DNA of 64,000 nt, taken from the sequence record MK327932.1; one strand, written 5' to 3'. A model generated the notes under the pieces. It searched no databases, was not told the DNA's origin, and saw only the letters and a list, made by a program, of their open reading frames with translations. Positions 5,153-54,345 of this stretch are shown here, one piece after another (within the stretch, counting starts at the first letter, position 1; each line of letters opens with the position of its first letter). The DNA comes from Escherichia phage vB_EcoM_G2248. The position numbers and the translations under genes are program-made.

Positions 5153-5187
5153 TGGGAGTATTATAGCATACTCCCTTCGCATGTCAA
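5153..5187 (-). promoter_or_regulatory. PeSL-like early promoter with palindrome GGGAGTATGCTATAATACTCCC
   Basis: TTGACA at 5187..5182, TATAAT at 5165..5160; the palindrome spans the -10. Confidence 0.55.
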
Positions 5188-6362
5188 GCACTAACTTTTT
5201 TCTTTACTGCTTTCACCTTCTGGCGAATTGCTCGAATCTCTTCGATCTCTTTTTCAGTCTCTTTAACAATTTCTTTGCGATTCTGAATATCTGTATCTAG
5301 ATTATCATCAAGTTTAGGCAGCATGTCAATCAAGAACTTTTTAAAGTCTTTCAGGTTTCGGATAACAGCACCTTCACCCATTACCGCCACGCCTACACCA
5401 TCCGGCAGGTCGCCAAACAGTTTAACCAGTTCAGACAGATGATCATGATCTTCTAGTGCTTCTTCCGGTTCAGATGGCAGTTCCACAAAGTAATAACGTT
5501 CATCATTGCTGATCAGGTGATACCAGCAAAGCCCAAAAGATTTAGGAGTATATTCTACACCACCAACTTCAACTGCGTCAACACTTCCGAAAGAATCTAC
5601 TTTAGTTACCTTAAATCCATGTTCCAGCGTTTTAATAATTTCAATAACATGACTGGATACGGTTTCAGTATTAAACCAATGAGGCAAATTATGTGGATTT
5701 GGCTTGTATCGTTCGCCTACTTTAAATCTCTGACCACGCTCTTGCATACGGACATATTCAACTCGCGTGATTTCCGCGAAGTATTCAAATTCGCCACCGT
5801 CAAACACAGAAGCCCATTGATCACAAAAACGATCTGCCTTAACAGTTTCACCTTTCGCGGTGATCATGGTAGCTGATCCGTGCAATTCTTCTTCAACTAA
5901 AAAGCCATATTCGACAAAATCAACAAGTTTCATAGCTTCTTTGTGATCTGGATCATGCTCTCCCCAGAATCGCTTAAATTCTTGCAAACCTTCTGGGGTA
6001 AACGAATAACATTTACCTTTTTCAAAGTAAGTCGGCATTGCATCCTCTTTCTTGTTCATCGCTTCGTATGCCTCTTTTGAGATGCGTTTAAAGTATTTAC
6101 GCTCATTGTGCATAATCATAGTAGCCCAATAATCAACAATATCATTAGCGGAATAAACTACATCTCCAGCTTCAATAGTAATAACATGACCGTGGTCATC
6201 TTTTTCTAATACTTTAAAGCCCTTTTCTACGATTTCAGCAACACGAATATGACCACGGCGCGAAGCATCGGTCAGAATAATTGAATAGCGAGAAAAGTCT
6301 AGAAACTCATCTTTACCGCCTTCACGGAATGCATAGCAATGACCTTCAAAGAATTTAGCCAT
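5184..6362 (-). CDS. hypothetical protein with repeated ~65-aa domain (member of tandem paralog family)
   Basis: 392 aa; internal repeats share GF(K/L)V and NERKYFKRI motifs with the two following genes. Confidence 0.6.
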   Translation of the reverse strand: MAKFFEGHCYAFREGGKDEFLDFSRYSIILTDASRRGHIRVAEIVEKGFKVLEKDDHGHVITIEAGDVVYSANDIVDYWATMIMHNERKYFKRISKEAYEAMNKKEDAMPTYFEKGKCYSFTPEGLQEFKRFWGEHDPDHKEAMKLVDFVEYGFLVEEELHGSATMITAKGETVKADRFCDQWASVFDGGEFEYFAEITRVEYVRMQERGQRFKVGERYKPNPHNLPHWFNTETVSSHVIEIIKTLEHGFKVTKVDSFGSVDAVEVGGVEYTPKSFGLCWYHLISNDERYYFVELPSEPEEALEDHDHLSELVKLFGDLPDGVGVAVMGEGAVIRNLKDFKKFLIDMLPKLDDNLDTDIQNRKEIVKETEKEIEEIRAIRQKVKAVKKKVSA

Positions 6363-6384
6363 AATATAATCCTCTCGTTGTTTA

Positions 6385-6422
6385 GATGGGAGTATCTTAC
6401 TACTCCCGTTTCATCATGTCAA
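6385..6422 (-). promoter_or_regulatory. PeSL-like early promoter with palindrome GGGAGTAGTAAGATACTCCC
   Basis: TTGACA at 6422..6417 overlaps the stop codon of the upstream gene. Confidence 0.5.
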
Positions 6423-6985
6423 GCGTTAAATGACTTTTGGATCTCTTTCAGTTCAGCTACTTTATCGGCGCTATATTTTGCTTGATGTTCCATGCGCTTA
6501 AGCTCACCTTTGATATAGGTTTCTAGCTTAGGTTTATTCTCAATCAGAAAATCTTTCAGGTCATCGGCATTTTTAAAGTATAGCTGATTATCAAAGCTAA
6601 AATCTTCCAGCGTCAATGATACCAAAGAAGACTTCGCAAACAAGTTAATCAGATCTTCCAGAGATTCTTCTTTCTTAATTGGTTTCATTTCTTCAAACTG
6701 CTTTTTAGTGATGCGTTTAAAGTATTTTCGCTCGTTTGCAGCAATCAGAACAGATGCACCTTCATACTCATGAGTTTCTACCAGATACACACGCCCCATC
6801 GCATCAACAGTGAGAACTTTAAAGCCGTTACAAAGCACGTCATACAAGAACTTATTATGTTGCGGACATCGTTTGATAAATTCTGCGACTGTTTCTGCAC
6901 TACGGAAAGTATAGTAACGACCTCGTTCAAAAACAGCGTCATTGGGTGACTTAACCGAATATACTTTGTATGTTTTCTGTACCAT
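6419..6985 (-). CDS. hypothetical protein, paralog of 5184..6362
   Basis: Shares NERKYFKRITKKQFEEM and GFKVLTVD motifs; start placed at ATG 6985 behind RBS GAGGATTATATT. Confidence 0.55.
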   Translation of the reverse strand: MVQKTYKVYSVKSPNDAVFERGRYYTFRSAETVAEFIKRCPQHNKFLYDVLCNGFKVLTVDAMGRVYLVETHEYEGASVLIAANERKYFKRITKKQFEEMKPIKKEESLEDLINLFAKSSLVSLTLEDFSFDNQLYFKNADDLKDFLIENKPKLETYIKGELKRMEHQAKYSADKVAELKEIQKSFNA

Positions 6986-6999
6986 AATATAATCCTCTA

Positions 7000-7272
7000 T
7001 CATTTCACTAATTGAACAGCACGGAACAGAATGCGGTCACACGGAAGCAGCATAAATTCCCAACGCGGATCAAAGTCTTTAGCGGTATATGTTTTCCCAT
7101 CAACCGAGATTTCACTTACATAACCAATAGGTGACACTTTAAGAACAGTAAATCCATTCTTGATGACTTCGTAGGTATCTTTCAATCCTTCGTAGTCATC
7201 CTCTAGGAAGTCTTTACGTGCTTGCTCAGATTTAAAAACATAGGCCACACCGGATTTAAACATCTTACGCAT
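7000..7272 (-). CDS. hypothetical protein, single copy of the paralog domain
   Basis: 90 aa with GFTVLKVSPIGYV motif; RBS AAGGAGAATCAACA before ATG 7272. Confidence 0.5.
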   Translation of the reverse strand: MRKMFKSGVAYVFKSEQARKDFLEDDYEGLKDTYEVIKNGFTVLKVSPIGYVSEISVDGKTYTAKDFDPRWEFMLLPCDRILFRAVQLVK

Positions 7273-7296: not shown

Positions 7297-7332
7297 TGGG
7301 AGTATTTTACTACTCCCATTTCATGTTGTCAA
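7297..7332 (-). promoter_or_regulatory. PeSL-like early promoter with palindrome GGGAGTAGTAAAATACTCCC
   Basis: TTGACA at 7332..7327, -10 TAAAAT, palindrome spans the -10. Confidence 0.5.
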
Positions 7333-7335
7333 CCA

Positions 7336-7809
7336 CTATCTTAATCTTTGTATGAATTGTTTCTTATACTTCTTCGTGATCTCTTCTCTTGTATCCGCGT
7401 CACAGTAATCGAAACCTTCTGCGTCCATAATAGCAACCATCTCCGCTCGTGTCAAGCGTGAAAATCGTTTTACTTTATCAACAGCATATTGAGGATGTAA
7501 ATGATTGTTGGTGTAGTCTCCTTTGATGTAATTAACATAGTTTGTAGCCCAAACAACGAAATCAGCACCTAAAGCACCAACACCAAACCGTTTAAAGTCT
7601 CCGGTCAACGATCCTTCTAGGCGGTTGCAACACGAATGAAGCAATCCCCTTACGCGGCCTTGCCCTTTCCCATCTAGATCGTGGTCGTGGTCAAGATGGT
7701 TTTTGCTCATATCCTCAAAAAGTGGCAATTGACAAAGGGGGCAAATGCCCCCCTGTTTTTCGAATAGTTCTTGTTTGTACTCTTTAGCACTCTTAGCAGT
7801 CAGTAACAT
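7336..7809 (-). CDS. 49: endonuclease VII (Holliday junction resolvase)
   Basis: Motifs HLDHDHD, GxVRGLL and CxxC match T4 gp49; track TTG start moved to ATG 7809 (MLLTAK...). Confidence 0.9.
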   Translation of the reverse strand: MLLTAKSAKEYKQELFEKQGGICPLCQLPLFEDMSKNHLDHDHDLDGKGQGRVRGLLHSCCNRLEGSLTGDFKRFGVGALGADFVVWATNYVNYIKGDYTNNHLHPQYAVDKVKRFSRLTRAEMVAIMDAEGFDYCDADTREEITKKYKKQFIQRLR

Positions 7810-7833
7810 AAATTCACCCTCCAAAGAAGGTAT

Positions 7834-8115
7834 TTAACCATTAATCTTGTTTTTGACTACAAAGGATCGGAACTCATCAAAACCACCGATATAATCACCA
7901 TCATAGAAAATCTGCGGCATGGTGGCAATAACTTCTACCCCTGCGCGATCCTGAATATCGGCAATGATAGAATCAATCTTTACCGGACGACCGTTTTCGT
8001 CCACACCATCATTAACCGGAATGTAGATGTAAGGGATCTTACGCGCTTCACAAAGGCGCTTTGCATTCTGGCAATACTTACAGTTGTAACCTTCAAAACC
8101 AAAAATTTCTACCAT
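7834..8115 (-). CDS. nrdC: glutaredoxin/thioredoxin-like protein
   Basis: CKYCQNAKRL active site and MPQIFYDGDYIGGFDE resemble T4 NrdC; ATG at 8115. Confidence 0.8.
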   Translation of the reverse strand: MVEIFGFEGYNCKYCQNAKRLCEARKIPYIYIPVNDGVDENGRPVKIDSIIADIQDRAGVEVIATMPQIFYDGDYIGGFDEFRSFVVKNKING

Positions 8116-8123
8116 GTTATACC

Positions 8124-8936
8124 TCAATCTACGTTAGTTACATAAACTTCTTGCGTATCAGAAGACTTACCACCTGAACGATCTAGGCAATAGGTCTTAT
8201 TCAACAGGACGCAGTTTAAATCATTCCGCTTGATAAAGTCAAGGAGATGATCATTTACCTTTCCCTTATGATGCGTGACATTACTGATACCAAACTGAAA
8301 ACCACGCGCCATAATCGATTCTACCCACTGATAGAATTTAATCTCTTCCTCGTCACTCCAGAACTTATTATATTCCGCAGAAGTGATAAGGTACGGCGGG
8401 TCCAAATAAACGAAATCACCTGGCAAGATCTCGATCTCGTCATAGCGACCAGACGTAAAACTGATTCGACCGTCTTTGTTTTCTTCCTTAAAATTCAGGA
8501 CACGCTCTACCGCGTTTTCGTTAAAAGTCCGGCGACCAAAATTAGCATTAAATTCTCCCTTCCTGTTATGGCGGTTAATGTTGCTAAAACTGTGCTGAAT
8601 CAGAACAAACAGAGATAGCGGATCTGGATTCTCATTATACTTCTTGCGGAATGCCATATAAGAATCTTTATCATCACGAGACAAACCATTCTCGGCAATA
8701 ATCAGCTTGATCGTAGAAACCGGATCAGGACACTCGTCAATCGCTTTGTACGCGTCAATTAAGCGGTGATCATAGTCATTAGCCAGAACACCCCCTTCGA
8801 CGTACAGAGACACGCTCAAGCCACCACAAAAGGCATCAACAAAGCGGTTATAGTGCTTAGGGAAATACTTACTAACACTTGGCAATAACTTTTCCTTATT
8901 GCCAGTATAGGGAATTAAACCTAATGCTTTCTTCAT
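8124..8936 (-). CDS. dam: DNA adenine methyltransferase (Dam family)
   Basis: NRFVDAFCGGLSVSL (motif I), DFVYLDPPY (motif IV), YNKFWSDEEE; close match to T4 Dam. Confidence 0.85.
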   Translation of the reverse strand: MKKALGLIPYTGNKEKLLPSVSKYFPKHYNRFVDAFCGGLSVSLYVEGGVLANDYDHRLIDAYKAIDECPDPVSTIKLIIAENGLSRDDKDSYMAFRKKYNENPDPLSLFVLIQHSFSNINRHNRKGEFNANFGRRTFNENAVERVLNFKEENKDGRISFTSGRYDEIEILPGDFVYLDPPYLITSAEYNKFWSDEEEIKFYQWVESIMARGFQFGISNVTHHKGKVNDHLLDFIKRNDLNCVLLNKTYCLDRSGGKSSDTQEVYVTNVD

Positions 8937-9367
8937 TATCCCTTCCTCAAATAAGTTCGCTCAATCTCTACCAGTTCGAAAAATTCATCCCAATCACACG
9001 GAAAATTGCAGTTTCCAAAATGGTCTTCATTGTAAAGCTCTTTACCGGATGGCAACTTAATATCTGTTACAGTATACCAACCGCAACAATCACAATCACC
9101 CTCAACAACAGAAACTTTCGTCGGAATTTGCATCATTGCCAGATAGGTCGGCACGTCAGACTGTTCAAAGATCATGTAACCTTCATTGTCAAACGAAACA
9201 AAATTATCATCGCCCAAAAAAGGGATATAGTGGTCATAATCGGTTACAGGTTGACCGTGCAATTCCCATTCTACAATTTTAACATTACCACTAAACTTGA
9301 TACCCATCATATCAACCATAAAATGAGTATCGTCAATGTAAATCTTACTAGGAGTTGGATAAACCAT
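8936..9367 (-). CDS. hypothetical protein
   Basis: ATG 9367 behind conserved RBS GAGGATTATATAATG. Confidence 0.5.
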   Translation of the reverse strand: MVYPTPSKIYIDDTHFMVDMMGIKFSGNVKIVEWELHGQPVTDYDHYIPFLGDDNFVSFDNEGYMIFEQSDVPTYLAMMQIPTKVSVVEGDCDCCGWYTVTDIKLPSGKELYNEDHFGNCNFPCDWDEFFELVEIERTYLRKG

Positions 9368-9377
9368 TATATAATCC

Positions 9378-9671
9378 TCATATCTCAGAGAATAGAATCT
9401 CTGTTAGCTTCACTGACTGCTCTCTGAATGTTAGCGTATACTCGAAAGGAAAGTCAACACCTAATTTCAGAAGAGAATAGCCTACCGCCTCTTTATGCTT
9501 ATCTGTTAGGGCAATCCTAACCAATTCCAGTTGAATCTCTTTAGGCGGTGAATGGATAGTAACACGGGTATCATGCAATGTCCAGTCACCATTACGAATC
9601 AAGATTAACGGTTTATCGTCATTGAAGATCACCGACCCCTTTCCGGTCGGTGAGTGTTTTATACTAATCAT
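9378..9671 (-). CDS. hypothetical protein
   Basis: Track ORF; start moved from TTG to ATG 9671. Confidence 0.45.
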   Translation of the reverse strand: MISIKHSPTGKGSVIFNDDKPLILIRNGDWTLHDTRVTIHSPPKEIQLELVRIALTDKHKEAVGYSLLKLGVDFPFEYTLTFREQSVKLTEILFSEI

Positions 9672-43400: not shown

Positions 43401-43518
43401 TGACCAGTCGGCGGTAACATTCTCTATGTTCCGTGAACTTGTAGATAAACGGTTGAAGGATAATATAGGAAATCCACGAGACCCGAAGAATCCGACACAG
43501 AGGAAAATTAATGGCTAA
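40432..43518 (+). CDS. 7: baseplate wedge initiator gp7
   Basis: 1028 aa, synteny and size (T4 gp7 about 1030 aa). Confidence 0.85.
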   Translation: MIKAPSVTSLTIEKLSANQAYITWDDVGENFFYFVELAETRTRDGEIIPVDELSWVNLGYTADQNWFEDKNLFPEYYYKFRVAVAAEGFEQSKWIETEEFQTFKTNAYNFSMMREFNLANEFVKQKFTYDNRDYIKFNTDLIQASLMQEDFVFSPEYANITNISNKIIVDENFHEIQDHIEKVCIDINRTMLAEMNGVLYLFERFQPIVKVSNDKGQSWKAYKAFNDRVGNPVSRTCVYQSKTTTYVLGYDRIFYGRQARDTRWSADDVRFSDDTITFAKVGDENDLGFDVEVFGVFSRLTGDTTKYAEAMACSDDYLWVGAKDVIRRIRLKNTPVDTVQGSPTFGEKIFDPDVIRVTGNDKAVIQKMDVIDGKLLVFVTGEVKQRYQDPTKPENVVPSDDAGVYLIGSDGLSFQRVFGNTPQEREYIHHGFSNMSTNGDEVFISHYNHHFESILPDPETAAKYELSEAVKYSQEPTYLTDKKIHQTTFRASYDDLRIWELGPQAYYNEADYTWMRRNGVRVWITNDNRPLVVYPEVVYTQEVDTSGILDKNRINREVYDKGTVTCYLNNVKFEGFKQYASGVMFHKNTGEIIGFYQFNYRVRDQVGVYWKPTNVAFVAELQNQVREVPWVPVHYDREQDPDLRPLLNKMTPDSFLLENENFRKFSEYYLQFLSDGSGTYYNKLKNLIKNKYPREQDAYEYLWSEMNKRNIYADKNKRDAVVRFFESRKSDFYSTKGVEASYKFLFKLLYNEDVEIEVESQAGLEYDIVVSSTNIDEDIVGRTIYTPTGRANVTYLEREYEGGRLRWRVTIHNLIGRFEEGQVIKSEKTAFEGMILVGVRGKELLSSSIDYINRSRSQYTMKIKSALPVSRYANDVMRFVHPVGFGFIGVTLLTMFINSGLSMRHVETIIQSLKNYKFDSGLPSVYPDRVADLDVDGNIKIDPLTGKPLYLTSPTIGEEFPVPPEYDQENSELFHGLKASERRFAMSPLFDQSAVTFSMFRELVDKRLKDNIGNPRDPKNPTQRKING

Positions 43519-44506
43519 TGAAAATAGTGTGATCTATCGCTCAATCATTACTAGCAAATTCAGAACAGAAAAACTTCTGAACTTCTATAATTCTGTAGGC
43601 GATGGAGCAAATCAAATTACAATTTATGGAACGTTTGGACGTTCGGAGCCGTGGTCAGAAAACGAAAAAGAGGTGGGCTTTGCCCCACCTTATCCGACCG
43701 ATTCAACGGCTGGTGTTGTTGACGTGTGGACCCATATGATGGGGGCGGTTAAGATTAACAAATCACTTCTTGATGCGGTTATCCCTCGTAAAGATTGGGG
43801 TGATACCGGACAGGATAACCCGCGCACGTTCTTTATCAATGACATTGTTGTCGTAAACTCAGCACCATATAACCGAACTGATGTTGGTAGCGGCTGGATG
43901 GTGTATCGCGTAACCGATGTTCCTGATCGCGGTTACTGCTCGATTTCAAGCATTGACGCTAAAGTAGAGTGTTTGAAGTTGGGCGGAAAGTGGACCCCCA
44001 CTCATGAATCAATTGCGCCACCTGTAGGAAAGGGCGATTCTATTGATATGGGTGATGGGTATCGTTGGGAATATCTGTACACAATTCCACCTGATGCGGC
44101 GATCAACCGTTGCACCAATGAACATATTGTTGTACCGTTCCCCGATGAACTGCGACAAGATCCGGCGCGTTGGGGCTATGACAATGTGATCACCTGGTAT
44201 AATGACTATAATCTGCTTTATCGGCTGAAAGTAGTAACTTTGCGTTTTCAGGCTTATATGGACTCTGCGCAATTCCCAACTACCGCGTTAGTGGGTAATA
44301 CTGGTTTCCGTCAGTTAAGCATTATCCTTAACCCATTGGAAAAGAAAGCACGCCCTAGCGATCCAGACGTTAAAGCGGTCAAAGATAAGTACCGACCGCA
44401 AGACTTAGAGCCACACTCAGGCGAAATGATCTACATGGAAAACCGACAACCTATCGTTCGGTCATTAGATCAAACAGAACTTGTTTCTGTATTGTTTGAG
44501 TTCTAA
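43511..44506 (+). CDS. 8: baseplate wedge protein gp8
   Basis: 331 aa, synteny and size. Confidence 0.8.
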   Translation: MANENSVIYRSIITSKFRTEKLLNFYNSVGDGANQITIYGTFGRSEPWSENEKEVGFAPPYPTDSTAGVVDVWTHMMGAVKINKSLLDAVIPRKDWGDTGQDNPRTFFINDIVVVNSAPYNRTDVGSGWMVYRVTDVPDRGYCSISSIDAKVECLKLGGKWTPTHESIAPPVGKGDSIDMGDGYRWEYLYTIPPDAAINRCTNEHIVVPFPDELRQDPARWGYDNVITWYNDYNLLYRLKVVTLRFQAYMDSAQFPTTALVGNTGFRQLSIILNPLEKKARPSDPDVKAVKDKYRPQDLEPHSGEMIYMENRQPIVRSLDQTELVSVLFEF

Positions 44507-44521
44507 GTGTATGATTTTAAA

Positions 44522-44548
44522 AGCCAATTCGAGAGAGTTGGCTTTTTC
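44522..44548 (+). terminator. rho-independent terminator after gene 8
   Basis: Hairpin AGCCAATTCGAGAGAGTTGGCT followed by TTTTT. Confidence 0.65.
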
Positions 44549-44559
44549 CATTTTTGGTG

Positions 44560-44587
44560 TTGACAATCTTATTTGGTAAGGTATAAT
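44560..44587 (+). promoter_or_regulatory. near-consensus sigma70 early promoter (TTGACA, 16-nt spacer, TATAAT)
   Basis: TTGACA at 44560..44565 and TATAAT at 44582..44587; RBS GGAGGA before ATG 44617. Confidence 0.7.
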
Positions 44588-44616
44588 ACACACATCTAAA
44601 CAACGGAGGATAAATT

Positions 44617-44874
44617 ATGGCACGTCGTAAATTTACAGATAATTGTGAAGCAATTCAGGTATCCCCTTGCGGTTGGGATGTGATCGCGAACGGTGAAAAG
44701 ATTGGAGAGATCATCGATCATACTCATTCATCACTAGCCGATTACACCGATGAACTATGGGAGGGTATCAACTTCATGAATGACACTAAACGATTCAAGA
44801 CTATCGACGAAGCTATCTATTTTGTGTATAATCCAACTTTCGGTATGTGGGGAACTAGAAAATGGCACGCGTAA
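44617..44874 (+). CDS. small hypothetical protein (cassette ORF 1)
   Basis: 85 aa, RBS GGAGGA. Confidence 0.5.
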   Translation: MARRKFTDNCEAIQVSPCGWDVIANGEKIGEIIDHTHSSLADYTDELWEGINFMNDTKRFKTIDEAIYFVYNPTFGMWGTRKWHA

Positions 44875-45188
44875 ATATTAAACTGCATTATACAATGGGT
44901 AAACCAAAACATCCAATGCATAAAGTGTTTTGGGGCTTGCATCTTCAAGAAAAATGGCATGATAACTATTGGTTTTGTGACCATGATAAGAAGTGGCATT
45001 CTCAAGATGAAGTTAATGCGATGATGGAACAGGGTATCAAATTTAATTACTCTAATTATGACCATAGCATTACTTGTATTCGAAAATTGAAACGGTTTAT
45101 TCGAAAGAATCCGCAATTTAAAAACTTTGTGTTCTTTATGTCTCATGTTTATTTGGGGCATAGCGTTACCGTAACAGCAAAAGGTTAA
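44862..45188 (+). CDS. small His/Trp-rich hypothetical protein (cassette ORF 2)
   Basis: 108 aa, start overlaps the upstream ORF. Confidence 0.45.
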   Translation: MARVNIKLHYTMGKPKHPMHKVFWGLHLQEKWHDNYWFCDHDKKWHSQDEVNAMMEQGIKFNYSNYDHSITCIRKLKRFIRKNPQFKNFVFFMSHVYLGHSVTVTAKG

Positions 45189-45191
45189 ATA

Positions 45192-46031
45192 ATGGCACGA
45201 CTTTCTAAACAAGAGCAAAAATTACACGATCGGGCGATGGAGTTGATTAATTCAGATCGTCCATTGACATTTGAAGAAAAAGAATTTTGCTATAACAACT
45301 ATCATGGCGATGGACTAGGTGGTTCCGGTGCATTCTTTACCCCAGAATGGCTTGCCTGGGATTTTACCATTGATGCATATTGCACCGGAAAAGTATTAGA
45401 TCTTTGTGCGGGGATCGGTCGCTTATCTTTTTGTATGTTACATCGTTGTAAGCCAGAAAAGATCGTATGCGTCGAACTCAATCCAGAATTTGCGCGGATC
45501 GGCAAGCGACTATTACCGGAGGCAGAATGGATCACCAGCGATGTATTCGAATTTGAGTCAAACGAGAAATTCGATGTTGTAATTAGCAATCCACCTTTCG
45601 GGAAAATCAATACTACCAACACAAAGGATGTATTTGAATATACTGGCGGTGAGTTTGAATTTAAAGTTATGACGTTAGGCCAGAAGTTTGCCGATGTAGG
45701 TTACTTTATTGTTCCTTCTAGTTCCGCTGGTTTTGCATATTCCGGCAGACCTTATTATGATGAATCAGTGAAGTCTAATAAATATCTAAAATGGAGCAAA
45801 CAAACTGGTTTGGTGACTTATGCCGGATGTGGGATCGATACATCAGTCTATCGCGATGAATGGCATAATACCAACGTTTTAACAGAAGTGGTTGAGGTTC
45901 GGTATTACGAGAAAGAAGCCGTAGAAGCGCCTAAATCGCGTCCTAACGAACAGATAGAAGAAAGTAAGGAGATTACCTTACCGGAACAAGAAACAGCGTC
46001 TGGGACGCTCTCAGACTTGTTTGACATTTAA
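45192..46031 (+). CDS. gamma-class N6-adenine methyltransferase (M.TaqI/HsdM-like motifs)
   Basis: FFTPEWLAWDF (motif X-like), VLDLCAGIGRLS (motif I), VVISNPPFG (motif IV), in that order. Confidence 0.65.
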   Translation: MARLSKQEQKLHDRAMELINSDRPLTFEEKEFCYNNYHGDGLGGSGAFFTPEWLAWDFTIDAYCTGKVLDLCAGIGRLSFCMLHRCKPEKIVCVELNPEFARIGKRLLPEAEWITSDVFEFESNEKFDVVISNPPFGKINTTNTKDVFEYTGGEFEFKVMTLGQKFADVGYFIVPSSSAGFAYSGRPYYDESVKSNKYLKWSKQTGLVTYAGCGIDTSVYRDEWHNTNVLTEVVEVRYYEKEAVEAPKSRPNEQIEESKEITLPEQETASGTLSDLFDI

Positions 46032-46038
46032 TTATAAT

Positions 46039-46061
46039 CCGTCCTCGTGGGCGGCTTTTTT
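46039..46061 (+). terminator. rho-independent terminator after the methyltransferase gene
   Basis: Hairpin CCGTCCTCGTGGGCGG followed by TTTTTT. Confidence 0.6.
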
Positions 46062-46071
46062 GTATGTATTT

Positions 46072-46079
46072 TATAAATA
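46072..46079 (+). promoter_or_regulatory. late promoter TATAAATA for gene 9
   Basis: Exact TATAAATA 28 nt upstream of ATG 46107. Confidence 0.6.
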
Positions 46080-46106
46080 ATACATCATAACACGAGGAAT
46101 TAAACA

Positions 46107-46961
46107 ATGGCACAAGTTCCAAAGAAAAGAATAGACACAGGTACGGTCGGCAATCCATCGACTGGCGATATATTATATGATGGCGGTAATAAAATTAACG
46201 ATAACTTTGATTCAATATATGACGCATTTGCTGATCAACGTCTAAAAGAGATTGATCATGGTGCTGGTCGAATGGTTATTCATGCCACTGGATACTATCA
46301 GAAACACCCACGACAAAGCTATGCAGGATCGGCGGTAGAGATTGGTAGTCTGCATGATATTGACACAACTCAAGGCGCATTAATAGCAATTCTTCCTAAA
46401 GCTAAAGTTGGTGAGGGTGTTGTGTTCATAAATAGTAACGGTAGCTTTTCGGCAACAACACCACTAAACATTAGAACTCAAGCAGGAGATTCTATTAGCG
46501 GGTATTCAGGTGACGCGGTAATAACTCAACCTTTCTCAAAAGTCACCGTCTGGTGTACTGCCGTCGAAGGTAGTAGAGTTACCTGGCGGCTGGGCATCGA
46601 AAGTATGTTTGCCGACACAACCACACCACTAGATAGGACCGTTAATGTAACTGGAGTTGCAACCAACGTTGCTATTGCAGCAAAAACAGAATATGTATCA
46701 ATTAAACTATTAACAACCGCTAGCAATACGACGGGTTCAAAAATGCGCTCAAGCGAAACTCTATTGATGATTGATGCCAGAGCCGGAAAAGTTTACGCGA
46801 CAGAATATGCGGTTTTACAGAAAACAGAAGACGAATTATACACGGTTCGTTATTTCATTGGTTCCGGCGATAAAGTATATGCAGAGTATAAGGCTACTGG
46901 CGAAAATATTCGTTTAGCAGTTAAAGCCACAGACACTATTAAAATCGGGGTTGCTACATGA
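46107..46961 (+). CDS. 9: baseplate wedge / long tail fiber socket protein gp9
   Basis: N-terminus PKKRIDTGTVGNPSTGDILYDGGNKINDNFDSIYDAF closely resembles T4 gp9. Confidence 0.9.
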   Translation: MAQVPKKRIDTGTVGNPSTGDILYDGGNKINDNFDSIYDAFADQRLKEIDHGAGRMVIHATGYYQKHPRQSYAGSAVEIGSLHDIDTTQGALIAILPKAKVGEGVVFINSNGSFSATTPLNIRTQAGDSISGYSGDAVITQPFSKVTVWCTAVEGSRVTWRLGIESMFADTTTPLDRTVNVTGVATNVAIAAKTEYVSIKLLTTASNTTGSKMRSSETLLMIDARAGKVYATEYAVLQKTEDELYTVRYFIGSGDKVYAEYKATGENIRLAVKATDTIKIGVAT

Positions 46962-53604: not shown

Positions 53605-54345
53605 ATGTTTAACAACACTCTTTTTGCTCGCCTTGAATCGCAAAAGGATTATGAGAATACACGACAAACAGAGATTCTTAATCCTTATGTGAACTTTCAC
53701 AAATATACAAATACTCAGACGTTAGCCGACGTTATGGTCGCCGAAGCTATTCAGATGCGAGGTGTAGAATTATATTACATCCCTCGTGAATTTGTCAAAC
53801 CAGATATGATATTTGGTGAGGATGTTCAAAGCAAATTTACTAAAGCATGGAAATTTGCGGCTTATATTAACTCATTTGATGGGTATGAAGGAGCGGGTAA
53901 CTTCTTCTCTAGTTTCGGTTATCAAGCCAATGATGAACTAACTTTTACGGTTAACCCCAACCTATTCAAGCATCAAGTAGATGATCAAGAGCCAAAATCA
54001 GGTGACTTGATTTATATTCCAATGAGTAATGATTTATTTGAAATCTCATATGTAGAGCCATATCAGCCGTTTTTTCAGGCTGGCAAAAATGCCATGCGTA
54101 AAATTATTGCAGAGAAATTCGTGTATAGCGGCGAGGAATTGCGACCAGAATTACAACGCAATGAGGGAATTAATGTTGATGAGTTTGCGGATCTGGACCT
54201 TGCACCGATCACTAATCTGGACGGATTAACAGATATCAACTTAGAACAGTACAAAGAAGATAAGCAATTCAGAAGCGAAGGACAAGATTTTATTGACCCG
54301 TTTGATCCTATTAATGGCAAGGGTTCACCTTTTGCTAATTTTTGA
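53605..54345 (+). CDS. 14: neck protein gp14
   Basis: 246 aa, synteny and size. Confidence 0.8.

Follow-up and report, generated by a model that had tools for sequence, protein, structure and literature searches.

Proteins that bind gp45, the sliding clamp of T4, such as the DNA polymerase gp43, gp33 and gp55 bear a hydrophobic and acidic peptide at their extreme C-terminus, following a variable linker; these peptides are freely interchangeable and the linkers are flexible, and the review of T4 late transcription that describes them lists no gp45 ligands beyond the clamp loader and the C-terminal ends of gp43, gp55 and gp33 (PMC2988020). Clients of the bacterial beta clamp, including Pol II, Pol IV, MutS, MutL and Hda, carry a pentapeptide with the consensus QL(S/D)LF, and in eukaryotes the DNA methylase DNMT1 is recruited to new DNA through a short motif that binds the clamp PCNA (PMC9690074). 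DNMT1 is the only methyltransferase named in that 2022 review of sliding-clamp partners, and in the literature that we searched no bacterial or phage DNA methyltransferase was reported as a clamp client. Here we describe a small methyltransferase, the orthologue of RB49ORF143w, encoded between genes 8 and 9 of Escherichia phage vB_EcoM_G2248 (sequence record MK327932.1). The 64,000-nucleotide stretch analyzed, hereafter the window, also encodes a Dam enzyme of the T4 type. This second methylase ends in a peptide closely resembling the end of gp43, which makes it a candidate gp45 ligand.

The original prediction held that the phage encodes two DNA adenine methyltransferases of different classes, a Dam-type enzyme with a DPPY motif and a gamma-class NPPF enzyme in the insert between genes 8 and 9. 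Both genes were found at these places (8124-8936 on the minus strand; 45192-46031 on the plus strand, between gp8 and gp9), and motif order indeed separates them, Dam showing the alpha arrangement and the second enzyme the gamma order X, I, IV. The pairing itself is ordinary, because both genes are present, and already annotated, in 58 of 58 records of the genus Krischvirus, to which the window phage belongs. What is new is the clamp-type tail of the second methylase and the mechanism that it suggests. We lean slightly towards the second enzyme being a replication-coupled, clamp-tethered DNA adenine methylase that works alongside Dam. Dam, encoded in the early-gene block, would methylate GATC, and the small orphan second methylase would be transcribed, within the cluster of baseplate genes, from an early-type promoter of its own. 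The latter most likely methylates adenine N6 in DNA and is most likely recruited to replicating phage DNA through the gp45 sliding clamp. Its clamp-binding element would be the C-terminal peptide, presented on a flexible linker and copying the clamp-binding end of the phage polymerase, and such tethering would let a methylase without a large DNA-recognition domain modify freshly replicated DNA ahead of the nuclease.

Compared with the systems above, the locus combines known parts in a different way. The second methylase shares the motif order X (xxFFTP), I and IV (NPPF) with the gamma-class N6-adenine DNA methyltransferases (M.TaqI, Eco57I, N6_Mtase, HsdM, CamA), but unlike them it has no C-terminal target-recognition domain (TRD); its core comprises about 238 residues and is followed instead by a disordered, clamp-type tail. 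The arrangement of peptide and linker is that of gp43, gp33 and gp55, whereas the carrier, as read from sequence, is a methyltransferase, unlike the known gp45 ligands. The motif in the window enzyme is of the phage-clamp and not of the beta type. The proposed logic is the same as for DNMT1 and PCNA, as an analogy of mechanism only, since DNMT1 is a C5-cytosine enzyme with an internal motif and another purpose, whereas the second methylase is an amino-methylase with a C-terminal motif.

The resemblance to the polymerase is close. In both RB49 and phage G37-3, gp43 ends in ASLTDLFDI, and seven of these nine residues recur in the tail of the second methylase; the last 18 nt of its gene are identical to gene 43 at 17 of 18 positions. 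The window and 70 kb of RB49 together contain 1258 open reading frames (ORFs) with a length of 40 aa or more; when their ends were scanned, DLF or [ST]L..[LF]F appeared only in gp43 and the second methylase. RB49 gp33 ends in TNTLDI and gp55 in PSLDQFYEIEN. The peptide persists in homologues with 64-67% identity (as GTLTDLFDI or GSLSMFDI), whereas their linkers differ in length as well as in sequence. Judged from the sequence and the structural model, the second methylase has the architecture of a gp45 ligand, a flexible linker leading up to a short motif, hydrophobic and acidic, at the very C-terminus; binding to the clamp is putative, and gp45 itself is encoded outside the window.

To put the tail into a wider context, we analyzed the family of the second methylase, which comprises 716 representative clusters at 50% identity and has members in 289 phage records. 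Tails were compared in 151 representatives, 96 of which have at least 8 residues past the core. The pattern Q[LIVMF]x[LIVMF][FLM] occurred inside the last 12 residues of 26 of these 96 tails, compared with a mean of 0.5 and a maximum of 4 in 2000 tail shuffles. LF was found in 49 tails (shuffle mean 3.9) and formed the very end of the protein in 19. Typical ends are QLSLF, QLTLF, QLALF, QLDLFGEAA and QASLFGDAA, and the QL[SD]LF consensus of the beta-clamp clients is common to many members from phages that are not T4-like; on many IMG/VR phage contigs the family member ends in Qx[SD]LFGxAA. Three tail types were distinguished among 80 IMG/VR loci: copies at the ends of Enterobacteriaceae prophages have no tail, those on viral contigs of 15-90 kb mostly carry beta-clamp-type ends, and those of T4-like phages end in TLSDLFDI, [ND]LFTFTIE or TFDFRIE. 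The type of tail tracks the replisome, with polymerase-like hydrophobic and acidic tails in T4-like phages that have a gp45 clamp and QLDLF in a lambdoid member that uses the host replisome. On sequence grounds, clamp-type tethering seems to be frequent in the family, and not universal.

The neighbouring genes point in the same direction as the tails. In RB43, Matisse and leB, the homologue lies within the replication module, between the genes for the gp41 helicase and the gp61 primase. A lambdoid contig has it behind the O and P genes and ahead of ninB, and there the protein ends in QLDLFGEAA. At two further IMG/VR loci, the homologue comes directly after a DnaB helicase gene, as part of a module that also has a GcrA-like regulator (L070:6630-7313), or directly after an MT-A70 methylase gene, between the genes for an SF2 helicase and a Prim-Pol/helicase (L083:9429-10001). 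The tail-less copies reside at prophage ends in Citrobacter and Enterobacter chromosomes, and one prophage-end homologue occurs on 887 contigs. DNA as the substrate is indirectly supported by the clamp-type tail, the replication-gene neighbours in other phages and the matches to DNA methylase profiles that include motif X (see below).

We put at an even chance the broader proposal that this is a widespread family of small phage orphan DNA adenine methylases that are clients of the sliding clamp, with gp45-type tails in T4-type phages and QL[SD]LF in phages that use the host replisome. Binding of the tail to gp45, or to the beta clamp in other lineages, would account for the access of so small a methylase, which lacks a recognition domain, to newly made DNA. 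The 'toolbelt' of the T4 clamp would gain a client, a further class of ligand in addition to gp43, gp33, gp55 and the clamp loader, and there would be a simple rule, namely that the type of tail follows the type of clamp, for the 289 phage records and many enterobacterial prophages. The family would then be the phage and bacterial counterpart of DNMT1-PCNA and could methylate new phage DNA during replication, quickly enough to stay ahead of restriction.

The catalytic core was examined by motif, profile and fold. The second methylase is fully identical to QBO62297.1. Across 26 homologues with 43-68% identity, the residues G46-A-F-F-T-P51, C72-A-G-I-G76, N133, P134, F136 and G137 are invariant and P135 is nearly so; the motifs follow the order X, I, IV with 57 residues from I to IV, which is the gamma arrangement. 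The top Pfam domain is MTS (37.8 bits), and Methyltransf_25 also matches. The Eco57I domain (PF07669) scores 27.2 bits against a cut-off of 25.3 and is found with E<=0.01 in 13 of 26 members, and N6_Mtase (PF02384) reaches 16.6 bits, below its cut-off of 20.4. The NCBIfam equivalogs of RNA and protein methylases remain far below their cut-offs: PrmC with 36.7 against 199.1, the L3 glutamine methylase with 28.2 against 229.7, RsmC with 26.8 against 295 and TrmN with 16.3 against 350. These RNA and protein methylase profiles start no earlier than aa 59-66, without motif X, and align within aa 59-145 only, a stretch that begins with motif I and closes with motif IV; the N-terminal domains of RsmC and PrmC are absent from the second methylase. 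The PADLOC profiles of DNA methylases start at aa 30-46, the Type II models among them at aa 45-46, and take in GAFFTP. The best profile match of all is PADLOC mad2 (PDLC04134; E=6e-17), which covers motifs X to IV in the N-terminal half (aa 30-139). Mad2 is longer (a 492-position profile) and belongs to MADS, a multi-gene bacterial defence system, whereas the second methylase is a phage orphan.

The AlphaFold model has a mean predicted local confidence (pLDDT) of 81, with block means mostly >90 at aa 51-130 and lower in parts of aa 131-240. It predicts a Rossmann-type core to about aa 238 and a disordered remainder, in which the mean pLDDT drops to 59 at aa 241-250 and to 44-48 at aa 251-279. 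Foldseek searches of the PDB returned a mixture of neighbours (lmo1582, M.TaqI, PH1948, HsdM, CamA) with query-normalised TM-scores of at most 0.55 for the top matches, a result that is compatible with a DNA methylase and not diagnostic. Superposition on M.TaqI, limited to the M.TaqI catalytic domain, gave a root-mean-square deviation of 3.6-3.9 across about 207 columns. In a library of viral structures, DNA methylase domains predominate among the fold neighbours, and at the top stands a family member from a Dickeya phage that is fused to a fragment of a beta-class N6_N4_Mtase; as the sole informative fusion among the longer members, it gives a weak hint. Sequence and profile searches of PDB chains yielded weak matches throughout (E ~1e-4 or worse) to a mixture of DNA and RNA types. 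By sequence and predicted fold, the second methylase thus appears about equally near the RNA and protein amino-methylases (PH1948/METTL5-like, RsmC, PrmC) and the DNA enzymes (M.TaqI, HsdM, CamA). Of the predicted gamma-class DNA adenine methylase, the motif order stands; to take DNA adenine as a settled substrate goes too far, given the nearness to RNA and protein methylases and the lack of a TRD. The enzyme is probably a DNA adenine methylase, and it is the context, not membership in a family, that speaks for this.

The insert between genes 8 and 9 (44507-46106) forms a self-contained early-type unit, consisting of a terminator, a promoter, three ORFs and a terminator, within the late baseplate operon (Table 1). 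Early expression of the second methylase is likely, because a perfect early-type promoter is present together with flanking terminators, and would fit an enzyme that acts during replication. Perfect sigma-70 promoters occur six times in the window, compared with 0.07 expected, and four of them lie in the early-gene block. The two small ORFs upstream of the methylase gene in the cassette, of 85 and 108 aa, have no Pfam or PADLOC match, and the first of them is split into two annotated ORFs in RB49. A conserved partner subunit for specificity or regulation was considered and dropped, as neither of the two upstream ORFs resembles those that precede the homologue in RB43.

Table 1. Coordinates of the two methyltransferase genes, their motifs and the cassette between genes 8 and 9 (window positions)
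Feature	Position	Strand	Basis or remark
dam, T4 Dam orthologue, alpha-class N6-adenine DNA methyltransferase, 270 aa	8124..8936	-	profiles, T4 Dam alignment, RB49 annotation dam
Dam motif IV, DPPY, aa 179-182	8391..8402	-	aligned with T4 Dam D171-Y174
Dam motif I, FCGG, aa 36-39, S-adenosylmethionine (AdoMet) binding	8820..8831	-	aligned with T4 Dam 1yfj F32-G35
Intrinsic terminator-like hairpin and T run just past gene 8, upstream cassette boundary	44519..44546	+	also annotated in phage GEC-3S
Perfect sigma-70 promoter TTGACA-16-TATAAT, early-promoter type, predicted to drive the cassette	44560..44587	+	annotated in GEC-3S
85-aa ORF, phrog_16603, function unknown, cassette gene 1	44617..44874	+	ORF call
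108-aa ORF, phrog_12630, function unknown, cassette gene 2	44862..45188	+	ORF call
Second methyltransferase, RB49ORF143w orthologue, 279 aa, gamma motif order, no separate TRD	45192..46031	+	between genes 8 and 9
Second methylase motif X, GAFFTP, aa 46-51	45327..45344	+	invariant in family
Second methylase motif I, LDLCAGIG, aa 69-76, AdoMet binding	45396..45419	+	alignment
Second methylase motif IV, NPPF, aa 133-136	45588..45599	+	N133, P134, F136 invariant, P135 nearly
Predicted disordered acidic linker, ~aa 240-270	45909..46001	+	low pLDDT; varies among orthologues
C-terminal peptide GTLSDLFDI, putative gp45 sliding-clamp-binding epitope	46002..46028	+	near-identity to gp43 C-terminus ASLTDLFDI
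Intrinsic terminator-like hairpin and T run before gene 9, downstream cassette boundary	46039..46054	+	annotated in GEC-3S

Relative to an order-2 Markov expectation for window positions 1-64000, 25 of the 64 hexamer palindromes are wholly absent, with a summed expectation of about 248; they include GAATTC, AAGCTT, GGATCC, CCATGG, CTGCAG, GGTACC, ACCGGT and TCCGGA. Among tetramers, GGCC (0.47) and AGCT (0.65) are depleted. GATC occurs 350 times in the window against 331 expected, and none of the other 16 four-base palindromes reaches its ratio of 1.06; TGATCA and AGATCT are about as frequent as expected. Restriction-site avoidance is therefore very strong, with GATC exempt, in a phage with canonical cytosine, and the non-depletion of GATC alongside this avoidance is consistent with protective GATC methylation. 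Evasion of a second restriction specificity by the second enzyme, as originally proposed, is plausible; the accompanying idea of layered regulation by dual methylation found no support. The palindrome statistics were also considered as a guide to the target site of the second methylase; striking as the avoidance pattern is, it points to no motif.

Several observations weigh against the second methylase being a clamp-tethered DNA adenine methylase. The AlphaFold model contains no discrete target-recognition domain, and in the searches of solved structures PH1948, the TrmN6-like protein 3lpm and RsmC come marginally ahead of the DNA methylases. Methylation affords no blanket protection: the strong avoidance of EcoRI, HindIII and other A-containing sites speaks against a non-specific adenine methylation of this kind, and the reported cleavage of RB49 DNA by DraI and NheI agrees with this (PMC4041780). 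The tail is absent in 55 of the 151 representatives, including prophage-end, Aeromonas and Sinorhizobium phage copies, and 39 of the 96 tails contain no recognisable motif. In Pseudotevenvirus and Slopekvirus, the methylase tails NLFTFTIE and DLFTFTIE have only the [ND]LF core in common with SLNTLFGDDW and SLNDLFGDW of their own gp43 (in RB43, leB and Matisse, the gp43 tails read ASLNTLFGDDW and ASLNDLFGDW). Neither biochemical results nor methylome or REBASE-type data on RB49ORF143w and its homologues came to light in the literature that we searched.

These points bear on several alternatives. The enzyme may methylate RNA or protein, with rRNA (m2G or m6A), tRNA (m6A) or the glutamine of release factors or ribosomal proteins as targets, and thereby tune host translation. 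The rank of MTS among the Pfam domains and the solved structures nearest by sequence would fit such a role, as would the absence of a TRD and the occurrence of NPPF in enzymes of this kind as well; older annotations in several records (rRNA guanine-N2-methyltransferase-like, release factor glutamine methyltransferase, predicted RNA methylase) say the same. We nevertheless hold an RNA or protein substrate to be decidedly unlikely, as the scores lie 5 to 10 times under the curated equivalog cut-offs, the N-terminal domains of RsmC and PrmC are missing and the invariant GAFFTP motif X aligns with DNA methylase profiles only; moreover, an enzyme of that kind would hardly be expected to bear clamp-type tails or to lie next to replication genes. 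A DNA methyltransferase whose tail is not a working clamp ligand would leave the substrate unchanged and reduce the resemblance to gp43 to a by-product of recombination at the 3' end of gene 43 or of an mRNA hairpin. The near-identity to gene 43 at the nucleotide level is compatible with a copied segment, a terminator-like hairpin (45998-46016) overlaps the region coding for the tail, and the RB43-like methylases differ from their own polymerases at this end. On the other hand, the peptide is kept in homologues with 64-67% identity while the linker diverges, and unrelated lineages independently carry terminal beta-clamp-type motifs far above the shuffle expectation, so that a non-functional tail seems unlikely to us.

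Methylation of DNA at the fork could also serve a purpose other than escape from restriction, either as a self mark against the phage's own nucleases or in the timing of packaging or late transcription. Site avoidance already handles many Type II specificities; RB49 carries gene 56 (dCTPase), and DenA homologues have been reported (PMC8056088), despite canonical cytosine; and gp45 also activates late transcription (PMC2988020). Since the tail-less copies at Enterobacteriaceae prophage ends fit a generic anti-restriction role of an orphan methylase equally well, we regard such a purpose as distinctly improbable. The split first cassette ORF of RB49 and neighbouring ORFs without known function might suggest a hyperplastic insert in which the methylase gene survives as an inactive passenger, yet this is highly improbable: the gene is intact, at 279 aa and with 94-98% protein identity, in all 58 Krischvirus records, its catalytic motifs are invariant across the 716-cluster family, and it has a strong promoter of its own. 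We therefore retain the clamp-tethered DNA adenine methylase as our working model, in which the DNA substrate, the adenine target, actual binding to the clamp and an anti-restriction purpose would all have to hold.

Previous annotations of the gene are diverse. RB49 has a gene annotated dam, and RB49p143 is named 'DNA methyltransferase; similar to rRNA guanine-N2-methyltransferase'; other records call the second methylase 'release factor glutamine methyltransferase' or 'hypothetical protein', and the cluster names of the family are generic (methyltransferase, DNA methyltransferase, predicted RNA methylase). In a comparative paper from 2006, RB49ORF143w was listed only as a weak match to the 'Methyltransferase small domain' (PMC1524935). 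In published work on the Slopekvirus phages KP15 and KP27, searches for the 'unknown DNA modification' of KP27 list Dam and Dcm only and state that there are no other methyltransferases (PMC5219037, PMC3620542). We nevertheless detected a homologue of the second methylase in KP27, and one is annotated in Matisse (L010:12001-12777) and in phiEap-3, so that the family may bear on the unexplained restriction resistance of Slopekvirus phages such as KP27. According to a 2026 paper, glucosylated methyl-deoxycytidines, for which the pathway of synthesis is unknown, are present in the Krischvirus SAP, whereas TB34, which is 99.96% identical, has canonical cytosine (PMC13390438). Genomes of the RB49 type also retain the dCTPase gene 56. 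We found no link between the modified cytosines of SAP and either methylase of the window.

The assignment of the Dam gene is straightforward. Its product scores 103.8 bits with Pfam MethyltransfD12 (PF02086; cut-off 22) and 149.8 bits with TIGR00571 dam (cut-off 114.85), and it matches structures of T4 Dam such as 1yfj with E=3.5e-65 across aa 5-268. Some 140 residues separate its motifs I and IV, as in the alpha arrangement. T4 Dam itself, a GATC enzyme of the D12 family (PDB 1yfj, 1q0s), can be aligned with the window protein end to end, and FCGG and DPPY are common to both; the window Dam is 11 residues longer. At the T4 Dam positions K11, S112, R116, N118 and R130, which we take to be the residues contacting GATC in the T4 Dam-DNA structures, the window protein has kept K, S, R, N and R, and it carries I in place of M114 and N in place of P126. 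From this orthology, the window Dam would be expected to methylate GATC. The gene order differs from that in T4, running here dam, nrdC, gene 49. Directly upstream of dam lies an ORF of 143 aa (8936-9367, minus strand) without a Pfam or PADLOC match, and base 8936 is common to this ORF and the dam start codon.

Around dam (7300-9400), the sequence matches Escherichia phages vB_EcoM_G37-3 and G5211 with 100% identity and RB49 with 96%, and all 58 records that match it belong to Krischvirus; by sequence, the window phage is placed in this genus of RB49-like T4-type coliphages. The neighbours of the insert were identified by their Pfam matches, gp8 at 43511-44506 (Phage-Gp8, E=1.8e-143) and gp9 at 46107-46961 (T4_gp9_10_N, E=5.8e-41). 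When ORFs with 80 aa or more in all six frames were scanned for [DNS]PP[YFWH], methylase-like matches appeared only at 8124-8936 (minus strand) and 45192-46031 (plus strand). A third match to the motif, DPPF at the extreme C-terminus of a 310-aa ORF of the late region, comes without a Pfam methyltransferase match.

The sign of the GC skew flips near 36 kb, where the minus-strand block of early and middle genes meets the plus-strand block of late structural genes. The sixth perfect promoter, TTGACA-N18-TATAAT at 53769-53798, reads along the minus strand, within the cluster of late structural genes that occupies the plus strand. For several kb downstream of it, the minus strand has no ORF of at least 150 aa, and the promoter may drive an antisense or small transcript. 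At 5184-7272 on the minus strand, three adjoining genes encode proteins of 392, 194 and 90 aa, which have no significant Pfam match and correspond to the RB49 annotation frd.2/goF-like 'mRNA metabolism modulator'. When their translations were compared by eye, the three genes appeared to consist of five copies of one module of about 100 aa, recognizable by G-x-x-Y-x-F, then GF-x-V-L/V and then G-x-V.

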